Assembly: GCA_964631205.1 (NCBI GenBank)
Contig: CAZVWU010000001.1
Location: 28,346-92,345 of the forward strand
Source of the DNA: an uncultured archaeon
GTDB taxonomy: Archaea; Aenigmatarchaeota; Aenigmatarchaeia; QMZP01; JACQNV01
Reading direction: 5' to 3'
DNA length: 64,000 bases
Positions 11,666 to 64,000 of the stretch are shown piece by piece. Each line of letters starts with the position of its first letter. The first letter of the stretch is position 1. A model generated the notes under the pieces. The model saw nothing but the letters and a program-made list of their open reading frames with translations. It ran no database searches and was not told the DNA's origin. Made by a program: the position numbers and the translations under genes.

Positions 11666-12697
11666 CTACTCCTCTGCTTCGTCCTCTTCTATAGAAACTG
11701 CAATCTTTTTCTTCCCGTCGGTTTTTTCCATGGTCTTCAGGAACTCCTCATCATCCCTTATCCCTTCCAAGCCGACCCTGAAAACAGCCTCGCCTTCCGG
11801 AAGGCATGGGGAGTCTATCATCCTTGCTATCCTTTTGTCGCCTTTGCTTTTCCTCAGGTAAATCCTATAAGTTGACTGGTGGCCTAGCACATGCCCGCCT
11901 ATTGGGACTGTGGGGTCTCCAAACATTATGTCAGGCCTTGACATGACCTGGTTTGTCACATATACGGCCAGATTATACACATCCGCAAGCCTTTGGATCT
12001 TGTGCAGATGCCTGTTTAATGTCTGCTGCCTGTCAGCCAGCTGGCCCCTTCCAGTGTAGTCTGACCTAAAATTTGCTGTAAGGGAATCGATAATAAGGAG
12101 CTTGACATTTTGGGCTTTTATCAGCTCCTCTGCCTTTTCTGCAAGCAGGATCTGGTGGTCTGAGTTGTATGCCCTTGCCACAAGGATATTTTCAAGGGTC
12201 TTCTTTGAGTCCAACCCCATATCAGCTGCCATGTCCTGTATCCTCTCTGGCCTGAAGGTCTGCTCAGTGTCTATAAACACAGCCTTTCCCTCCAAGCCGC
12301 CTTGCTGCTTTGGAAGCTGGACAATTACAGCAAGCTGGTGCGCAAGCTGGGATTTCCCTGAACCAAATGCCCCATAAGCCTCTGTTATTGCCTGCGTCTC
12401 TACGCCTCCTCCGAGCAAATTATCGAGGCACTTCGAGCCTGTGGAAATTTTTCCAATAGACTCCCTTCTTTTCAGGACTTCTGTCGCCACTTCAAAGCCC
12501 ATCTTCAGCTTTCCCCTCGCCGCATTGATTATTTTGTTCGCCGTCTCCTCCCCTAAACCGCACTTATCGTTAAGCTCGGCGGCAGAGGCTGCAGCCAAAG
12601 CCAGCATATCAGTATAACCAGCAGCACTAAGCTTCTCGGCAATCTTTTCGCCAACGCCCGGCAGATTTTCAATTTCTTCAGAAGACATAAGCAGCAA
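11666..12697 (-). CDS. radA: DNA repair and recombination protein RadA
   Basis: The N-terminus has an HhH ([12 protein letters not shown]). Walker A is [10 protein letters not shown]. The core is RecA-like. Confidence 0.9.
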
Positions 12698-12793
12698 AAA
12701 TAATTCTATTTCTTATTTAGTAATAAGCTTTAAATAGAAAACCAGGGAGTAGAATTCCGCTATCCCGTTAGAAGTAGATTAAAGAAATAGCTT

Positions 12794-13039: not shown

Positions 13040-13057
13040 ATTTTTCCACCTCCCCAA

Positions 13058-13104
13058 CTGGACATAGGCCTTATCTTGTTGGTCAAGGCCTATGTCATCC
13101 CTTT
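13058..13104. repeat. Palindromic element family P (GACATAGGYCTT-N12-AAGRCCTATGTC, flanked by CTG...ATCCCTT)
   Basis: CTGGACATAGGCCTT-ATCTTGTTGGTC-AAGGCCTATGTCATCCCTT. 12-bp perfect inverted repeat. It lies about 20 nt upstream of the start of the 12794 gene. Confidence 0.6.
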
Positions 13105-13106
13105 GC

Positions 13107-13325
13107 TTAAAATTGCGTAACCGCTTCCAGATCTTGTGACAGGCCAGTTAGCTCTGGCGCAGCTATATCGTTTTGTACTGTATCTGCCGAAGATATGTCC
13201 TTATTCAAATCTTGGGTTGCAGCAGGATCGCCTGTGCTTGCTTGCTGCTCTTTCTGAGTGCAGCCGGCTACGGCAACAATTACAAGAATTGCCGCAACCA
13301 AGACGAAAATTTTTAATGATGGCAT
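13107..13325 (-). CDS. Small secreted lipoprotein (lipobox VAGC)
   Basis: 72 aa with a signal peptide MPSLKIFVLVAAILVIVAVAGC followed by a low-complexity acidic region. Confidence 0.35.
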   Translation of the reverse strand: MPSLKIFVLVAAILVIVAVAGCTQKEQQASTGDPAATQDLNKDISSADTVQNDIAAPELTGLSQDLEAVTQF

Positions 13326-19314: not shown

Positions 19315-19698
19315 TTAGCTTTTCAGGAGGATCCTGTTTCCGAACTTCCAATAGGTTATTTCAGCGCCGGGCTGAACCTTGGCTTTCATATCGTCCGGCA
19401 CAGCCGTCTCGAAAGTAGTGTAATCTGTAAGGTCCATTATCTGCGCAGAATTCCCGGAAACTGAGATTACTTGGCCGCCCCTTTTTTCTATTATTGGGAC
19501 AGAAACATCCGAATCTGCAGGCTTCATAAGGGTCCTTTTCCTGTCATCAAAGATGCCAACAGCCTCAACCCTTGCCTTTGCAGAACCATGCTTCCCTGGC
19601 TTTGAAAGCTCAACTTTCGTGACCTTGCATGGCTCGCCATCAACCATCAGATAGCCGCCTTCCTTTACTTCTTTCAGGCTTGCGGCTCTTTCCTCCAT
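19315..19698 (-). CDS. eif5a: Translation initiation factor 5A (aIF-5A)
   Basis: The hypusination loop SKPGKHGSAKA is present. 127 aa. Confidence 0.85.
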   Translation of the reverse strand: MEERAASLKEVKEGGYLMVDGEPCKVTKVELSKPGKHGSAKARVEAVGIFDDRKRTLMKPADSDVSVPIIEKRGGQVISVSGNSAQIMDLTDYTTFETAVPDDMKAKVQPGAEITYWKFGNRILLKS

Positions 19699-56942: not shown

Positions 56943-57200
56943 TCTTTAATGCAAACAGTCAGCCTATCACAATTTTTAAGGTAAAGGGAAATATCCATTT
57001 TATGCTTTCTATCGCCTCCCCCCCCTTTCGATATAAAAATCTCCGTCTTCCTCTATTAACCTGCCGACAAGATATAACCCAAAATATTCGCTGCCACCTG
57101 AAATTTCAACAATTCGCCCAATGTGGCCTTTTAATGTTTGGGTTTTAGAATCAAGATGATCCACAAGTTCCATAGAATAATTTGAACCCAGAATTTAAAA

Positions 57201-58391
57201 ATGCGGGAGATGGGCAAAGGCTCTTCGCAATTGGTCTCAGGTTTTGAGTTCAGGGTGTTGAGTGGTGTCTACAGGAAGGCCTTAATTGGTATCTTGAATA
57301 ATGTATCGGAAGAGAATAAAAGCATTATCTACAGGTTTCTGGAAGAGGAATGCGTTAAAAAAGGCTTGACTGAAAGACGGAGGGAAAAGTATATACGGAT
57401 TATATCAAAAGTTGTATCCTCAATTGGAACCAGAATTTTAAATGAAATAAACAAACCGGACATAGACAACTTCTTTTTCTATCTGAAATCAAGCAACCTC
57501 AGTGACCCGACAAAGGAAGACTACTGGAATATGTTCAGGATATTTTCTGAATACTTGAACCCAAATCTCGGAGTCAGGACTTACAGGCTCAAAACCAAGA
57601 AGAAGCATAAACTGCCAGAAGAAATCTTCAAAGAGGATGAGATCAAAATGGTGATAGAAGCCGCTTATTCTATTCGGGACAAAGCTCTCCTCAGCCTTCT
57701 ATATCACGGAGCTTTGAGGCCTTTGGAACTTACAAGCGCCAGAATAATGGATTTAACCTTTGACCAGTATGGGGCTGTCCTGATGGTGAGGGAGATCAAC
57801 AAGACAGGCTCCAGAAGGTTAAGATTGATAGAACCTGTCCCTTTGCTAGCCCAGTATTTACAAGAGCACAGATACAGGGAAGATCCGCATGCGCCTTTAT
57901 TTTACAGGCAGGACAGATATACAAAGACACATCTTAACCCTCAGCAATTAAGCAGACTTGTAAAGGAATGCTCAAAGCGGGCAGGAATAAACAAAGGAAG
58001 GATGTACGCATATCTGTTCAGGCACAGCAGACTCACACACCTATCAAAACATCTCACAAGCCAAGAGGTAATGGTTTTCGCTGGCCACACTCAATTAGCA
58101 ACAACACAGATCTATGTGCATCTGTCGGGCACAGATGTTGAGAACAAATTGCTAAAGATAAACGGGATTGTAAAGCAGGAGGAAAATACTGCTGTTTTAA
58201 AAACACAGATTTGTGTAAGGTGCAATACGCAAGCAGACGCCTCTTCCAAATACTGCCCAAAATGTGGGATGGTTCTTGATCAAAAAGAGGCTTTTTATTT
58301 GAAAGACAAAACTGAAAATGATTTCCAACAGTTTATGATGGAGATGTTCAGGAAGTGGAAAAATAGTACAGAACATGAAAGAAAGCTTTAA
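57201..58391 (+). CDS. Tyrosine recombinase / integrase (phage-integrase family) with a C-terminal zinc ribbon
   Basis: Catalytic residues in RPLEL, LFRHSRLTHL and GHTQLATTQIYVHL. C-terminal CVRCN...CPKCG. Confidence 0.8.
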   Translation: MREMGKGSSQLVSGFEFRVLSGVYRKALIGILNNVSEENKSIIYRFLEEECVKKGLTERRREKYIRIISKVVSSIGTRILNEINKPDIDNFFFYLKSSNLSDPTKEDYWNMFRIFSEYLNPNLGVRTYRLKTKKKHKLPEEIFKEDEIKMVIEAAYSIRDKALLSLLYHGALRPLELTSARIMDLTFDQYGAVLMVREINKTGSRRLRLIEPVPLLAQYLQEHRYREDPHAPLFYRQDRYTKTHLNPQQLSRLVKECSKRAGINKGRMYAYLFRHSRLTHLSKHLTSQEVMVFAGHTQLATTQIYVHLSGTDVENKLLKINGIVKQEENTAVLKTQICVRCNTQADASSKYCPKCGMVLDQKEAFYLKDKTENDFQQFMMEMFRKWKNSTEHERKL

Positions 58392-58417
58392 ATATCCAAG
58401 TATTCTATATTACACTA

Positions 58418-58813
58418 TTGCATTATTGCAATATGAGGATATTTATGGCGAAAGCAAATATCGATACTAAATCTGGCACAAAAATTACAATAGAAGGCAC
58501 AAGCGAAGAAATATCAGAAATTATATCAGTTGTTCAACGAAGGGAAGAAAGTGGTAGAATCAGAGCTCAATCAACAAAAGAAATCACAAAAAACAAAGGG
58601 ACTAAACTTTCTGATCTCCTACTGGAAATGCGAGAGGAGGGCTATTTTGATAAGCCACAGGGATTAGTTGAGGTGAAAAAAATACTAGAAGAAAAGGGGC
58701 ATATATATCCAGTAACAACCCTCTCAGGAGTTCTATTGGCGGCCGTCAAAAAAAGAACACTTCGTAGGCTACCAGAAGGTAAACGCTGGGTATATGTCAA
58801 AGGAAGCATATGA
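58418..58813 (+). CDS. Hypothetical protein
   Basis: 131 aa. Its stop is 6 nt from the GNAT start. Confidence 0.3.
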   Translation: MHYCNMRIFMAKANIDTKSGTKITIEGTSEEISEIISVVQRREESGRIRAQSTKEITKNKGTKLSDLLLEMREEGYFDKPQGLVEVKKILEEKGHIYPVTTLSGVLLAAVKKRTLRRLPEGKRWVYVKGSI

Positions 58814-58819
58814 TTTCTT

Positions 58820-59374
58820 ATGGGAGAAAAAGTAAAATCAGAAGACATCAGAACAGAGAAACTGGAAGAAAGACATGCAAAGCTTCTGGCTACCTTTTCA
58901 ACGGAAAATAAGGAACTGAAAGCCTTTCTTGTTGAAGATGCCCTCAAAAACCAACAGCTTTCAATATCAACAACATATCTCTGGTTTTACAACCCAACAA
59001 GCGAACTGGTTGCCTACATATCCTTGTTAAACGACTCCCTAAGGATAAGGGAAACAGAGCTGGAAAAACTGTTTGTTGAAAAAGGCATTTTGTACAAAAG
59101 TTTGCCTGCGCTAAAAATAGGAAGGCTTTGTGTGGACAATAGGTTTGCAGGAAGAGGTATAGGCACATTCCTCACTAAATTTGCAATGATAAAAGCCTCA
59201 AAAATAGGCGAAGATGTTGGATGCAGGTTTCTTGTTTTGGATTCCAAGAAAGAGGCTGTCGAATTTTACAAGAAAATGGGCTTCTGGGTTTTAAGGGAGA
59301 ACGAGAAAGAAACATTTCCAATGTACTACGATTTATTGAATGTGGCTCCCATGTACAAAGAAACTAAGCATTAA
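58820..59374 (+). CDS. GNAT-family N-acetyltransferase
   Basis: Motif A RFAGRGIGTFL and an acetyl-CoA site. Confidence 0.75.
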   Translation: MGEKVKSEDIRTEKLEERHAKLLATFSTENKELKAFLVEDALKNQQLSISTTYLWFYNPTSELVAYISLLNDSLRIRETELEKLFVEKGILYKSLPALKIGRLCVDNRFAGRGIGTFLTKFAMIKASKIGEDVGCRFLVLDSKKEAVEFYKKMGFWVLRENEKETFPMYYDLLNVAPMYKETKH

Positions 59375-59559
59375 AAACCTTTGCTAATTTCTGCAGTTCT
59401 TTGGCTAGCTCAATCTCTTTCTGTGTAGGAGGAGAGTTTTGCTTTTCTATCATCCTCTGAACAAATCTCCTTGCATCTTCACCTCTCAATTCAGGTGTTG
59501 GTTCTATTGGCTTTGCCATATAATTATAGTCAATTTCAGGGCTTATAAACGCCTTTCCT

Positions 59560-59916
59560 CTAATCTTCCCTGCCTTTCACAGAATCCCTCAGGTTGAACA
59601 ACATCTTCCTAATCTCTACCAATCTGTTAAGGAGTTTCTCCGCTTTAGCTTTGTCTATAAGTTCCAAGTCTTTGCATATGTTGAGCCAGTATTCTGCTTC
59701 AAAAGCTTCACCAATGCAAACCCTCAGTTTTTCAGATTGTTGAGCTGGTTTATTCATCGAACAAAACTCCATAAGGTTTGCTGGTATGCTCGTTATTGCA
59801 CCAAGAAGCTGTTCTTGCAGTCTGTATTTTCCTTTGAAGTTTTCAATTTCCTTTATCACATCTTTTGACAGCTCATAAGCTATCTTGTAGACTTCAAGAT
59901 TATATGGATTGTTCAT
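59560..59916 (-). CDS. Four-helix-bundle protein (23S rRNA intervening-sequence protein family)
   Basis: 118 aa, helical, with the family-typical EAEYWL block. Confidence 0.55.
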   Translation of the reverse strand: MNNPYNLEVYKIAYELSKDVIKEIENFKGKYRLQEQLLGAITSIPANLMEFCSMNKPAQQSEKLRVCIGEAFEAEYWLNICKDLELIDKAKAEKLLNRLVEIRKMLFNLRDSVKGRED

Positions 59917-59942
59917 ATTTTCACACTCCTTACTATTTGGAT

Positions 59943-60149
59943 TTACTCATCTAAAAACTCCCTTGCTATCCAGATTTCACGGTCTGTGAGTTCCTCTTCA
60001 TCCTCGAATTCGAGAACATGTTTAACCCTTTTTATTTCGCTTGATGTTGGCTTTTGAATTTCCATAAATTCCTCCCTTGAGCAGTCGGCAACACTCAAAA
60101 CCCTGAACTCAGAACTTTGGTTGCCCGCCCTATGTTTTTGAGATACCAT
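59943..60149 (-). CDS. Hypothetical small acidic protein
   Basis: 68 aa, possibly shorter if it starts at MEIQK. A GC-rich structured region lies immediately 5' of it. Confidence 0.25.
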   Translation of the reverse strand: MVSQKHRAGNQSSEFRVLSVADCSREEFMEIQKPTSSEIKRVKHVLEFEDEEELTDREIWIAREFLDE

Positions 60150-60154
60150 TTTTC

Positions 60155-60250
60155 TTAGGGGCTACAGGGGACGAGTAAGCGGGAGCTACCGTGTCCCCCT
60201 CCCAAGTGGAAGCGGAGGTTGAGCTGACCAACCAGAAAAAGCGAAACCCA
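60155..60250. ncRNA. GC-rich structured element, candidate ncRNA or att-like remnant
   Basis: About 60% GC in a 35% GC background. It has three consecutive hairpins: GGGGAC...GTCCCC, CCTCC...GGAGG, and GGTTG-AGCTGAC-CAACC. Confidence 0.3.
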
Positions 60251-60329
60251 AAACCATTAAATGCCTAGCTGAGTGAAAACGAAGCGGCTTTTATGGTTTT
60301 GATACGAGAACAAGTAAAATCGGCTAAAG

Positions 60330-61121
60330 TTAAACAATTATCGTACTTTTCTGATAAAGCAAAGGGAGACAATCTTGTCTTAATCTAAATTTCGTTCCAT
60401 GATTATGTCCTGTGCGAGCATCGAAATCTATCAATATTTTTCCAGAGTCTATTGCTTTCAAAAAACCTTCAAAATTAAATTTTTCCAACATCATAACTTT
60501 TGAATATTTGTAGAATTCTAGGTTACCTTCCTTTTTGACTTCTGCTTGAACATAAAAACAGTTTAGAAGCTTGGTACCAGCTTTATGTTCTAGATCATCG
60601 AAACCCCAATAAGGTTGCGGTTCTAATTCTTTCAAACCTACGCGTTCTTTAACAGATTTAAGCCAGTTCGTGTGTCGTACATCAACTGCCTTATAATCAA
60701 AAGATATAATTATCTTCCTTTCTTTTCTATTGATTATAACCATGAAACCGCGATCACTTCTTGATAAACCATGAATAGTCTGTCTAAAACTCATTTCATC
60801 TTTTGGGTAGTCTAATCCAGCCTCTTCGTGAGGCCAACCATACTTTGGCAAAAGTATTTGTGGTACAAATCGGAAGGCTCTTGGTGATGGCTCAATGTGA
60901 AATAATGTTGTTAAAGATGAGGAATTAAGACGCTGTGCTTTCAATTCCCATTCAGCGGCATTAGGTATTGGTAAATTATTTTCTTTTATACCAAGTAAAT
61001 CCTCAAGAGTATTACCAATTCCACCATGATTACCACTACGACTATTGAGTATCCAGCCTTTCTCTGATATCTCTTTCAACTTTTCAATCAATATTTGTTT
61101 TGTATAAATTATCGTTCCCAT
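60330..61121 (-). CDS. Type II restriction endonuclease, MvaI/BcnI family
   Basis: The N-terminal block SGNHGGIGNTLEDLLGIKENNLPIP is the MvaI/BcnI hallmark. The start is the internal Met MGTIIY. Confidence 0.65.
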   Translation of the reverse strand: MGTIIYTKQILIEKLKEISEKGWILNSRSGNHGGIGNTLEDLLGIKENNLPIPNAAEWELKAQRLNSSSLTTLFHIEPSPRAFRFVPQILLPKYGWPHEEAGLDYPKDEMSFRQTIHGLSRSDRGFMVIINRKERKIIISFDYKAVDVRHTNWLKSVKERVGLKELEPQPYWGFDDLEHKAGTKLLNCFYVQAEVKKEGNLEFYKYSKVMMLEKFNFEGFLKAIDSGKILIDFDARTGHNHGTKFRLRQDCLPLLYQKSTIIV

Positions 61122-61122
61122 A

Positions 61123-61869
61123 TTATAGCAATTTAGATTGAGATAATTGTTTTTTAATTCGCTCTTGGGCCATTTTACAATATTCTGGCGAAATATCAAT
61201 ACCTATATAGTTTCTTTTGAAATTAATAGCCGATATCGCAGTTGTTCCAGATCCCATGAATGGATCAAGTATAATTTTTGAACAGGTTGATGAAACAACC
61301 CTGTCAATTAAATTAACTGGAAATGCGGCAGGATGATCATTTTTCATCTCTTGGGTAAATTCCCAAACATCGCCATGGGAATTTGCTTTTGGTGCAAGCT
61401 TAAAATTCTTTTTTGCTATTAAATAGATTACTTCATATGTTGGAAGAAAATATCCAGGGTTAAAATTAAGTCCACCTTTTCTTTTCCAAATTATAATTTG
61501 CCTAACAGGAAATCCAATAAGTATATCTTGCCTATCTTGTAGAACTCCATCCTGAACACGCCATTTGTGATTGTAAAAAATTGCACCATTATCAGAAACT
61601 AGCCTCATCATTTCTGTAAGACAGTCTCTCTGCCACTTAACATATTTTTCATGCGGCATACAATCATCATGATTTGTATAGCCGTTTTGCAAGGCTGCGT
61701 TTGCCCATTTACCACCTCGCCCATCTTTCATACCGTTACCAGTGGAGTTTTTTAGGTTGTATGGGGGAGAAGTAATAATCAAGTCTATGGTTTCGTTGGG
61801 TATTTTTTTCATTACCTCTATAGCATCTCCACAAATGATCTTATTTAGGAAATCTTCTGGGAATTTCAT
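61123..61869 (-). CDS. DNA methyltransferase (N4-cytosine/N6-adenine, beta class), cognate of the MvaI/BcnI-like restriction endonuclease
   Basis: Motif IV IITSPPYN comes first and motif I DPFMGSGTT follows. Its stop abuts the endonuclease start. Confidence 0.8.
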   Translation of the reverse strand: MKFPEDFLNKIICGDAIEVMKKIPNETIDLIITSPPYNLKNSTGNGMKDGRGGKWANAALQNGYTNHDDCMPHEKYVKWQRDCLTEMMRLVSDNGAIFYNHKWRVQDGVLQDRQDILIGFPVRQIIIWKRKGGLNFNPGYFLPTYEVIYLIAKKNFKLAPKANSHGDVWEFTQEMKNDHPAAFPVNLIDRVVSSTCSKIILDPFMGSGTTAISAINFKRNYIGIDISPEYCKMAQERIKKQLSQSKLL

Positions 61870-61884
61870 AATTTACTAATCGAA

Positions 61885-62805
61885 TTATACTTCCTTTGAC
61901 ATCTTAATTAATTCTAAAATCTCAGGCAGATTAGAACCCTCTTCCACCTGCACCTCAAAACAATGTCCATTATAAAACCTTTGGACACCATCAGATAAAG
62001 GGCTTATTTTGTTATATTTGACCATTTGTTCCCCTTTTTCGTATGGTAACATAATAACTATTTTCATCTTCGACTTGCTAAAACTGATGAAGGCAAAATT
62101 GCGATCTTTCCTCAGAGAAACATAGTATTTTTGTGGATTAAAAATTATTTTGTCATCAACGGACAATATCTCTTGTTTGATTTTATTGTATATTTCTCTG
62201 ATAGAGTCACCAACTCTTTCTAAATGATCTTCTTCTGTATAAACCTTGACCTCTCTGCTCACTTCTTCAACAACTTTGCTTTTCTTACTTATCGTTTTTA
62301 TAGACTCTGAAGAATCTGGGGTTTCCAATTTCAAATATTGGACTAGATCACTGGTGTATTTTGAAACTTGCCATAGCTCTATTGGAAGGTCTCTAAAGTT
62401 AATGGCTTGCTGCTGATATTTTGAAAATTGTGGTGATACAAAAATAACTTTTGATTGTGTCCAATCGATATCCTCCTTTTTGATATTTTTATTGCCACAT
62501 TGATTGTATTCTAAAATAAATTCGGCTTTATTATTTAACATTAAAGACAAATATGCAAAACCCTGATCTATTACACTAAAGCTTCTATCATTTTTAAATT
62601 CTATGATTACAAAACTCTTTGACCGTTCATCGTAGGCTAAAGTGTCTATTCTGAGATTGTTCAGCGAAAATTCAGATTTTATAAATTTGAGATTAAAAAC
62701 AGCTTCTAAATTTTCTTCTGTTAATGTTTGGATATCCCTCTCTAATCCAAAATCCACTTCCTTCACCATTTGTAGCTTTTTAGCCTTTATAGAAAATAAT
62801 GGCAT
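61885..62805 (-). CDS. PD-(D/E)xK nuclease-superfamily protein (NucS/DUF91-like core) with a C-terminal domain of unknown function
   Basis: Contains RIDTLAYDERSKSFVIIEFKNDRSF...QGFAYLS. The start is probably MPLFSIK. Confidence 0.45.
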   Translation of the reverse strand: MPLFSIKAKKLQMVKEVDFGLERDIQTLTEENLEAVFNLKFIKSEFSLNNLRIDTLAYDERSKSFVIIEFKNDRSFSVIDQGFAYLSLMLNNKAEFILEYNQCGNKNIKKEDIDWTQSKVIFVSPQFSKYQQQAINFRDLPIELWQVSKYTSDLVQYLKLETPDSSESIKTISKKSKVVEEVSREVKVYTEEDHLERVGDSIREIYNKIKQEILSVDDKIIFNPQKYYVSLRKDRNFAFISFSKSKMKIVIMLPYEKGEQMVKYNKISPLSDGVQRFYNGHCFEVQVEEGSNLPEILELIKMSKEV

Positions 62806-62863
62806 AACTATACTTGTTTTTATTATATAAACGATATATATCTTTCCGTTCCAAATACCTCTA

Positions 62864-64000
62864 TGCAATCATTAGACCAAGAGAAGCTGGACATAATAAA
62901 CTCACCGGAAAATATCATTGTTGTCTCCAATCCGGGCACAGGAAAGACGACAACTTTAGCCCACAAGGTTCTTCATCTTTTGAAAAACGGCGCAAAACCA
63001 GAAGATATACTCTGTATTACTTTCACTGAAAAGGCCAAAAAGGAGATGTTTGATAAAATATGGGAAATTTCAGATGGAAGCATTAACGGCTCAGAATTGA
63101 TGAAGCTGAACATACACACCTTCCACAGCTTCGCTTTAGAGTACCTTACTGACAGAGGCTTGACAACAGGCGAAATAGCAGGAAACAATTTTCTAAGGTT
63201 TTCAATATTGAAGAGCTTTGAAAACAACAAAGCTTTCAATTACATAAAGGCCTACATCCTTTCGGAAATGGTTCCAAAGACAGAAAATGCAATAAGGTAC
63301 ATAAAGAGTTTTGGGATAACTCCTGAGAAAATAGACCTGCCAAAAACAGAAAAAGAAATTGAAAAGCTCTACGCAATAGCTAAAAAGTCAACTTACACTT
63401 TAGACGAGCTGAAAACATTTCTCAAATATTTTATAGAGGCATACAAAGAATACGAACTTTCCAAGAAGGATACAATAGATTATTCTGACATGCTGTTAAG
63501 GTTCCTTGAAAAGTTTGACGGGGTAAAATACAATTATGTGCTGGTTGACGAAATGCAGGACATGAATGAAATAGAGGCTGAGATTGTCCAAAAAGTAGGG
63601 AAAACCCTTTTTCTTGTAGGGGATTCCAAACAGGCAATATTCGGCTTCCAAGGTGGATCAATTAAAAACTTTGAGAAGTTCATGACAACCTGCAAACCCT
63701 TTCTCCTCGGCAAAAATAGAAGGAGCTGCCAGCAGGTTCTTGACTATTCAAAGACCCACTTTCTCAGCAAGACTTTGAAGAAGGAAATTTTCATCAAAGA
63801 ACTCGAATGCCTTCAGTCTGAAATAAGCGGGCCGAAGCCGAAAATAATATCGGCAAAATCGCCGTTCAAGAGGATTGTCGATATAATCAATTCCAACCCG
63901 GAAAAAAGCATAGGGATAATCACCAGAACGAACAAACAGCTTATAGAGATTTCTCAACACCTGCAGAAATGCAATATACCGTTTTCTTCAACGTCTTCCC
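62864..64000 (+). CDS. UvrD/Rep-like superfamily-1 DNA helicase (5' part, continues past the window end)
   Basis: Walker A SNPGTGKTTTLAHK, motif Ia CITFTEKA, motif II YVLVDEMQD, motif III FLVGDSKQAIFGFQGG. The frame is open to the window end. Confidence 0.75.

Follow-up and report, generated by a model that had tools for sequence, protein, structure and literature searches.

What does the end of a 64,000-nucleotide stretch of DNA from an uncultured archaeon (contig CAZVWU010000001.1; the whole stretch is called the window below) encode: a new antiviral pair made of a nuclease and a divergent UvrD-like helicase, or part of a mobile element? The preliminary description of this locus had listed a tyrosine integrase, a GNAT acetyltransferase with a linked upstream open reading frame (ORF), a four-helix-bundle protein, a GC-rich RNA-like patch, an MvaI/BcnI-type restriction-modification (R-M) pair, the nuclease and the helicase, and had proposed either an undescribed pairing or a mobile-element module. 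Via ORF listing and translation, together with Pfam, PADLOC and NCBIfam searches, all of these genes were found in place. Positions 57198-64000 are probably the left ~two-thirds of an integrated mobile element, in which a conserved backbone is combined with swappable restriction cargo.

The evidence for this reading came from comparison with relatives. The order four-helix-bundle gene (-), small ORF (-), non-coding patch, variable genes and helicase was common to four other loci, in three of which the integrase (+) stands at the left (the exception being the P0122 contig). The genes of the variable interval differed: the window carries the MvaI-type R-M pair and a PDC-S18 nuclease; L087 (module 1) an MmeI-type IIG enzyme, three ORFs and Mrr, then the helicase; the P0122 contig (helicase 85% identical) a C5-methyltransferase, an ORF of 341 amino acids (aa), Vsr, a 149-aa ORF and an NmeDI_C protein, then the helicase; L174 a type III Mod/Res system, three ORFs and Mrr, followed by an inverted UvrD-PDDEXK helicase; and L173, where the contig ends early, another, different methyltransferase. 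The left flanks were rpL18e/peroxiredoxin in the window, rpL13-rpL18e in L172, a PolB-exonuclease-like gene in L087, DHH in L173 and AHSA1 in L174; since they differ between loci, the unit moves. The mobile-element module offered as a fallback in the preliminary description was thus essentially right.

We infer that the backbone comprises the tyrosine integrase, the four-helix-bundle protein, the small ORF and a ~145-nt structured non-coding element, with a UvrD-RecB helicase-nuclease at the far side, and that the interval between structured element and helicase is the cargo slot. Here the slot (about 60303-62862) would hold two independent defence units, i.e., the MvaI-type R-M pair and a stand-alone PDC-S18 nuclease, the latter adjoining the helicase by position, as the last place of the slot, without forming a dedicated system. 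A block made of the GNAT gene and a 51-aa ORF would be a second, separate insertion, between integrase and four-helix-bundle gene. The G+C content is 0.31-0.37 in the cargo slot versus about 0.40 outside.

The limits of the element were drawn from the integrase end and from L087. The integrase gene (57201-58391, +) encodes 396 aa with a C-terminal zinc ribbon (Zn_Ribbon_1); residues 144-309 match positions 4-169 of the 172-position Pfam Phage_integrase profile (4.2e-19), and the translation shows an RHSR box and QIYVH, while NCBIfam XerA/XerD-like matches were all far under their cut-offs. Homology with related elements begins at the left junction (57198-57214), which overlaps the integrase start codon: homology between window and L087 starts at 57198, and the flank upstream of it in the window is unlike those of L087, L173 and L174. 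In L087, perfect 35-bp direct repeats at 2003-2037 and 12676-12710 (10,673 bp apart) bound a 10.7-kb element that contains the integrase, the helicase and all that lies between them, plus a 148-aa ORF, and that showed no genes for conjugation, capsid or replication initiator. Three independent assemblies contain the repeat pair; L090, a short fourth contig, has a single copy, truncated where the contig ends. By blastn the repeat matched the window at 57198-57214 with 17 of 17 bases. The total size of the element would be roughly 9-10 kb, and the right end of the present copy would lie ~2 kb past the window edge. As judged from L087, the island boundary would take in both the nuclease and the helicase.

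Short candidate recombination motifs were also found. A 27-nt motif, GTTTTGAGTTCAGGGTGTTGAGTGGTG (57240-57267, +; inverted partner at 60092-60115), is a candidate integrase-binding site: it matched twice in 64 kb versus zero expected, and it also stands just inside both 35-bp repeats of L087, where inverted 28-nt motifs occur just inside each repeat copy. Its 9-mer core, GGTTTTGAG, is present three times in the 64-kb window, each time between 57.2 and 60.1 kb; in the relatives it is found at the 5' end of the integrase gene, at its 3' end, at the end of the patch and beside the right repeat.

A tRNA as the integration target was considered and dropped: neither the 64-kb window nor L087, L086 or L083 gave a tRNA with ARAGORN, and Rfam gave no family in the window at gathering thresholds and none in L087 at E<=0.1. 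Two inverted copies resembling a tRNA 3' end (GGGTTCRAAT..AGCC, then TTTCTTTT) were observed at L087:12777-12801 and 13121-13145 (also 13040-13135), between the right repeat of the first L087 element and a second integrase. Neither ARAGORN nor Rfam calls a tRNA there and no canonical T-arm fold was apparent by eye; the copies could represent att remnants, or tRNA genes that are split or interrupted by an intron. The second integrase belongs to a further integrase/four-helix-bundle/small-ORF/structured-element module (L087:13257-15254), which lies in tandem about 550 bp after the first right repeat and whose cargo is an HTH-CBS regulator, a GNAT block and a 402-aa PDDEXK_1 protein.

The host is probably a DPANN archaeon of the Aenigmarchaeota, as judged from the names of integrase and helicase homologues. 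The genes upstream of the element (ribosomal proteins L29, L13 and L18e, SUI1 and peroxiredoxin) place it among the archaea, and integrase homologues at 45-63% identity are named Aenigmarchaeota, as are close homologues of the helicase; two other integrases, the closest of all, are 86% and 80% identical. A viral origin was considered and dropped: IMG/VR gave no relative of the helicase or the integrase and no match for two structured-element patterns. A related integrase also stands beside rpL13-rpL18e, as in the window, in L172 (Aenigmarchaeota), suggesting a shared insertion region. A putative, familyless 54-aa ORF (57009-57173, -) lies between the peroxiredoxin gene and the integrase in the window.

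The nuclease is the gene on which the idea of a new pairing turned. It lies at 61885-62805 (-) and matches the PADLOC model PDLC04945 (PDC-S18) with E 5.8e-105, over residues 1-302 and profile positions 1-299 of 302. It comprises a NucS-like PD-(D/E)xK domain and a C-terminal DUF5655 (Pfam); the NucS-like core that had been noticed earlier stands, while the family is now PDC-S18 and the formerly unknown C-terminal domain is DUF5655. The family alignment has invariant E22, D54, E69-x-K71 and Q81xxxY85, and 5601 homologues occur across Bacteria and Archaea. PADLOC phage-defence candidates (PDCs) were found by "guilt by embedding" (Payne et al. 2024 preprint, 10.1101/2024.01.29.577857). The window protein resembles PDC-S18 in its full-length hidden Markov model match, in being a single gene and in its setting, the family being often near methyltransferases and the present gene beside an R-M pair; no difference is known. 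The fold detail, a NucS-like nuclease with a YdhG/YjbR-like DUF5655, is new for PDC-S18. Sequence searches found no solved structure, and the literature gave no paper on PDC-S18 and one incidental paper on DUF5655. The protein would cut DNA via the NucS-like domain, and DUF5655 would bind DNA or direct the enzyme to its target.

Whether this nuclease and the UvrD helicase form a dedicated two-gene antiviral system of the Gabija or Nhi kind was judged from the neighbourhoods of PDC-S18 homologues (80 genome loci; homologues at 46-55% identity). The two genes are divergent with a 57-bp spacer, the helicase matches GajB models at 1e-31 to 1e-38, and one more adjacency was found, in the marine contig L121. 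A UvrD-type helicase, however, lay within 10 kb of PDC-S18 in only one of the 80 loci (tblastn), i.e., the linkage is absent from the other 79 and also from the closest relatives of the element, which place Mrr, NmeDI-like or other genes beside the same helicase. Flanking genes of PDC-S18 were hypervariable (234 clusters out of 265); the top Pfam family of their 140 immediate neighbours was N6_Mtase, with five, and no UvrD family was among the 25 commonest. Furthermore, the nuclease matched only the PDC-S18 and PDC-S11 models of PADLOC and neither GajA nor OLD, as its dissimilarity to GajA in the preliminary description had implied. Gabija is similar in that a UvrD-like helicase adjoins a nuclease in a defence context, but no OLD/TOPRIM GajA is present here; the GajB matches cover the helicase core only, and true GajB (PDB chains) has about 490-500 aa and no nuclease domain, versus 898 aa with a RecB-type nuclease domain of its own here. 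PDC-S18 is a stand-alone family and the nuclease-helicase pairing is not a conserved system. The neighbourhood data largely refute a dedicated pair, which we regard as highly improbable, and the undescribed pairing is not supported. Nuclease and helicase do belong to separate families, one of the outcomes that the preliminary description had named as speaking against its proposal; neither family is a housekeeping one, and the boundary drawn from L087 would include both genes rather than exclude them.

What, then, is the helicase doing beside restriction genes? In the window (62863-64000, +) it runs off the edge after the first 379 of 898 residues (Pfam UvrD-helicase 5e-44), and it is 93% identical to that of L087 at the nucleotide level and about 95% at the amino-acid level. 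The full-length helicase P0121 (898 aa) has UvrD-helicase, UvrD_C and, at 665-860, PDDEXK_1 domains, with the RecB-type motifs GKTD, VDFK and QLALY intact. This resembles AddA/RecB, in which a UvrD-type motor of superfamily (SF) 1A is likewise followed by a C-terminal RecB-family nuclease (D...(D/E)xK...QxxxY). It differs from them in that i) NCBIfam AddA and RecB models gave 64-68 bits versus cut-offs of 696-861 (for the N-terminal 379 aa only); ii) no AddB, RecC or RecD partner gene lies upstream in the window or downstream in L087 and L083; iii) the protein is shorter, with 898 aa; and iv) the context is restriction genes, not repair genes. The helicase-nuclease may serve the element itself in replication or recombination, or it may process DNA ends left by neighbouring restriction enzymes. 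These archaea are not otherwise known to have a RecBCD/AddAB-type enzyme.

This architecture, together with the presence of family members, 44-60% identical, in many genomes of Nitrososphaerota and Aenigmarchaeota and with the Aenigmarchaeota contig L176, where a DUF559 protein and a type III system flank the helicase and no integrase is found within 10 kb, would also fit a chromosomal repair gene of the host, beside which the island had inserted so that its boundary excluded the helicase. The 35-bp repeats of L087 nevertheless enclose the helicase, the frame from integrase to helicase recurs at different genomic sites, and one genome, that of Nitrosotalea okcheonensis, has two copies (P0136 and P0141). 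Moreover, close relatives have unrelated sequences just 5' of the start codon of the helicase, no conserved site was found there, and UvrD-like SF1 helicases, one of them from Nitrosotalea okcheonensis, are known on thaumarchaeal integrative-conjugative elements (ICEs), where they were read as replication genes (PMC6563490). A host repair gene is therefore very unlikely, and a helicase that travels with the element remains our preferred reading.

The neighbourhood of the helicase family was analyzed via 90 immediate neighbours at 46 non-redundant loci across Aenigmarchaeota and Nitrososphaerota. Roughly 30-35 of them, about a third, were restriction or defence proteins (an approximate sum of 25 listed Pfam families, some overlapping): GmrSD_N (7), N6_Mtase (5), N6_N4_Mtase (4), HNH (4), Mrr (3), Vsr (2), DUF5655 (2), McrBC, TdeIII and others, and by PADLOC HEC-05 (6), PDC-S34 (5) and type I and II methyltransferases. 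Ten upstream neighbours formed a cluster composed largely of GmrSD proteins (three of the four representatives scanned), one of which carries DUF5655 at its C-terminus; the L121 protein that resembles PDC-S18 falls in this same cluster. The data support a loose association of the helicase family with restriction genes, not specifically with PDC-S18. Two side observations concern the genes directly upstream of helicase homologues: an HNH endonuclease-HIT (nucleotide hydrolase) fusion in the marine contigs L096 and L127 (1614-2591, -, in both), and, at L150:7736-9799 (-), a GmrSD type IV restriction protein with a C-terminal DUF5655. Given this GmrSD-DUF5655 fusion, DUF5655 is a module shared by NucS-like and GmrSD nucleases.

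Such an association would also arise if the helicase-nuclease were the conserved half of a modular two-part defence, a generic motor that unwinds and degrades foreign DNA cut by a variable neighbouring sensor or cutter (PDC-S18 here; Mrr, GmrSD, NmeDI-like or HNH elsewhere), as RecBCD/AddAB does behind restriction in bacteria. In addition to the share of defence genes among the neighbours, the gene directly upstream is often a nuclease without a methyltransferase of its own (Mrr in L087, the NmeDI_C protein in the P0122 contig, PDC-S18 in the window and in L121, GmrSD in the ten-member cluster); in L174 Mrr stands at the 3' end of the inverted helicase; the nuclease motifs are intact; and the association persists without an integrase, beside the type III R-M system of L176. 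Against this, the orientation and spacing of the neighbours vary (same strand or divergent, 0-900 bp), so that no operon is conserved; the partner families are unrelated, and a defence-island hotspot fits equally well; the linkage from the PDC-S18 side is one in 80; and PADLOC has no model for the architecture beyond generic GajB/UvrD similarity, the proposed function being predicted from sequence. We thus consider a generic motor of this kind unlikely and retain a mobile element with a cargo slot as the reading that is probably correct.

Several points weigh against that reading: i) of the att direct repeats sought since the preliminary description, a perfect 35-bp pair exists in L087, while the left junction in the window shares just 17 of the 35 bases and the repeat at the right end of this copy falls outside the window; ii) the assignment to Aenigmarchaeota is based solely on the names of integrase and helicase homologues; iii) the helicase family occurs without an integrase within 10 kb, in L176, and, being common at 44-60% identity in Nitrososphaerota, it need not always be a mobile-element backbone gene; iv) the PDC-S18-like gene directly upstream of a helicase homologue in L121 and the GmrSD-DUF5655 fusion that adjoins the helicase in L150 indicate some recurrent proximity; and v) every function given is a prediction, made from sequence and with a model.

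A structured non-coding element with stem-loops (60158-60302, +) separates the backbone from the cargo. The GC-rich, RNA-like patch noticed earlier is thus real and conserved: it aligns with the same position in both L087 modules, L173 and L174, and is better conserved than the flanking genes, its 3' 95 nt being 94.7% identical to L174, where the integrase and four-helix-bundle genes reach 67% and 71% (nucleotide). Folding compared with shuffled sequence gave minimum-free-energy z-scores of -2.7 to -3.8. The consensus fold has four helices, in which 95% of cells are paired versus 38-52% in slid controls; ten base pairs are altered on both sides (compensatory changes), and none of 500 shuffles reached these values, which come from five sequences only and from a structure derived from the same alignment that scored it. 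Several G-U pairs favour the plus strand. The patch had no Rfam match, and blastn found no further copies in the DNA compared. Four of the five copies are followed, 43-56 nt downstream of the patch, by the start of a cargo gene on the plus strand. Homology of the window ends right after GGTTTTGA (60295-60302), the first eight bases of the 9-mer core GGTTTTGAG, while the four other copies go on with GCTCC. Extra perfect hairpins with 10-12-bp stems (L174:3290-3340; L087:3825-3870 / 13151-13196) were observed inserted in the structured element of some copies, and the extra-hairpin sequence of L087 also recurs just upstream of the second integrase.

A bolder proposal is that DPANN archaea have an integron-like capture platform, made up of the integrase, the four-helix-bundle gene, the small ORF and the structured element. 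In it the patch would act as a recombination site, or as an RNA guide or regulator, for the exchange of whole restriction/defence cassettes, and the UvrD-RecB protein at the other border would degrade DNA cleaved by the captured nuclease; by way of speculation, the GGTTTTGA junction would then mark integrase-mediated cassette exchange. The likeness to integrons lies in a tyrosine recombinase beside a fixed hairpin-forming site, beyond which gene content is variable. On the other hand, the integron-integrase model TIGR02249 gave the window integrase 60.2 bits versus a cut-off of 265; no repeated attC-like sites occur between the cargo genes of the window and L087, where short motif copies stand at backbone positions only; and the cargo units here are whole multi-gene systems. 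We hold such a platform to be rather doubtful.

The restriction cargo itself is of a familiar type, and the integrase-linked island with an MvaI-type R-M pair, as first described, was borne out by the Phage_integrase, MvaI_BcnI and N6_N4_Mtase matches. The endonuclease (60330-61121, -; Pfam MvaI_BcnI 1.5e-66, PADLOC REase_II 4e-88) bears SGNHGGIGNTLEDLLG, a region common to the MvaI/BcnI family, and most likely starts at ATG 61121 (263 aa, the gene call in L001), not at TTG 61199. The beta-class DNA methyltransferase (61123-61869, -; Pfam N6_N4_Mtase 7e-40) is encoded on the same strand as the endonuclease, whose start is 1 nt away. Its SPPY motif is N-terminal to FMGSG and its best PDB match is the N4-cytosine methyltransferase 8s9n (2.9e-34); it is thus predicted to make N4-methylcytosine, probably. 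The pair resembles the MvaI (CCWGG) and BcnI (CCSGG) systems in the SGNHGGIGNTLEDLLG-bearing endonuclease family and the adjacent small beta-class SPPY methyltransferase; the endonuclease is, however, just distantly similar to the solved enzymes (R.MvaI 2oa9 closest at 7e-17, R.BcnI 1.8e-6). The PADLOC model PDLC03305 (513 positions) covers the pair (60330-61869), its first half matching the methyltransferase and its second half the endonuclease; since it spans both proteins, fused MvaI-type methyltransferase-endonuclease proteins exist elsewhere.

The second insertion lies between integrase and four-helix-bundle gene, which directly abut each other in L087, L173 and L174. This 738-bp block (58793-59530) comprises the GNAT gene (58820-59374, +; Acetyltransf_10 1.6e-11) and a convergent, familyless 51-aa ORF (59364-59519, -) that is conserved in relatives; it is 89% identical in nucleotides to L087 18857-19593, where it lies elsewhere and inverted. 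A GNAT toxin-antitoxin unit of the TacT/AtaT type, in line with the toxin-like GNAT and linked upstream ORF once suggested, found no support. The upstream 122-aa ORF (58445-58813, +) had no Pfam, NCBIfam or PADLOC match, ribbon-helix-helix/DUF1778 included, was found only in the same-strain contigs L001 and L091 and is absent beside the GNAT in L087; the companion conserved with the GNAT there is the convergent 51-aa ORF. The last ~10 residues of the integrase (KWKNSTEHERKL; 58340-58391) resemble the C-terminal tail of the L087 PDDEXK_1 protein (19600-19640) that precedes the GNAT block, and this likeness may go back to the recombination by which the block was moved.

Two small backbone genes complete the left part of the element. 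The four-helix-bundle protein (59560-59916, -; 118 aa; Pfam 23S_rRNA_IVP 2.1e-22, TIGR02436 5e-22) has 88-92% amino-acid identity in both L087 modules; its gene adjoins the integrase in L175 as well as in L173 and L174 and is nearby in L172. An assignment as the Avd protein of a diversity-generating retroelement was discarded (DivGenRetAVD 18.5 bits versus a cut-off of 80; no reverse transcriptase domain in any ORF of the region). The small ORF (59943-60149, -; 68 aa, 40-92 aa in relatives) is conserved in its C-terminal 40 residues and is 67-85% identical to its counterparts in the L087 modules (tblastn). A relic of the integrase N-terminus was also rejected as its origin, the common sequence being the 27-nt motif only, with different flanks. 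None of the small ORFs (51, 122, 68/92 and 54 aa) had a family even at E<=5.

An object of this type, i.e., a defence-carrying integrative element with a cargo hotspot, is already known. Defence hotspots in mobile elements (P2/P4 prophages and satellites, ICEs, Tn7 cargo and the thaumarchaeal elements of Krupovic et al. 2019, PMC6563490) are likewise integrase-bounded, with a conserved backbone and one slot whose restriction/defence content differs between close relatives. The present element differs from them in its host lineage, which is probably DPANN, and in its slot borders, which are the four-helix-bundle gene, small ORF and structured element on one side and a UvrD-RecB fusion on the other. 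New in detail are the probable DPANN setting, a UvrD-RecB gene that occurs in association with restriction genes, and the structured element at the junction.

The genomes of DPANN archaea are small, and R-M and CRISPR systems are reported to be scarce in them (PMC12988326). An element family with interchangeable restriction systems would be one way in which DPANN cells acquire and swap immunity, with a cargo junction that is marked by a structured non-coding element absent from Rfam. Moreover, the comparison removes a tempting but wrong call of a new nuclease-helicase system, and PDC-S18 gains a fold-level description as a NucS-like nuclease with DUF5655, the latter also fused to GmrSD. Finally, the archaeal UvrD-RecB family could be the enzyme, so far missing, that processes DNA ends after restriction in these lineages.

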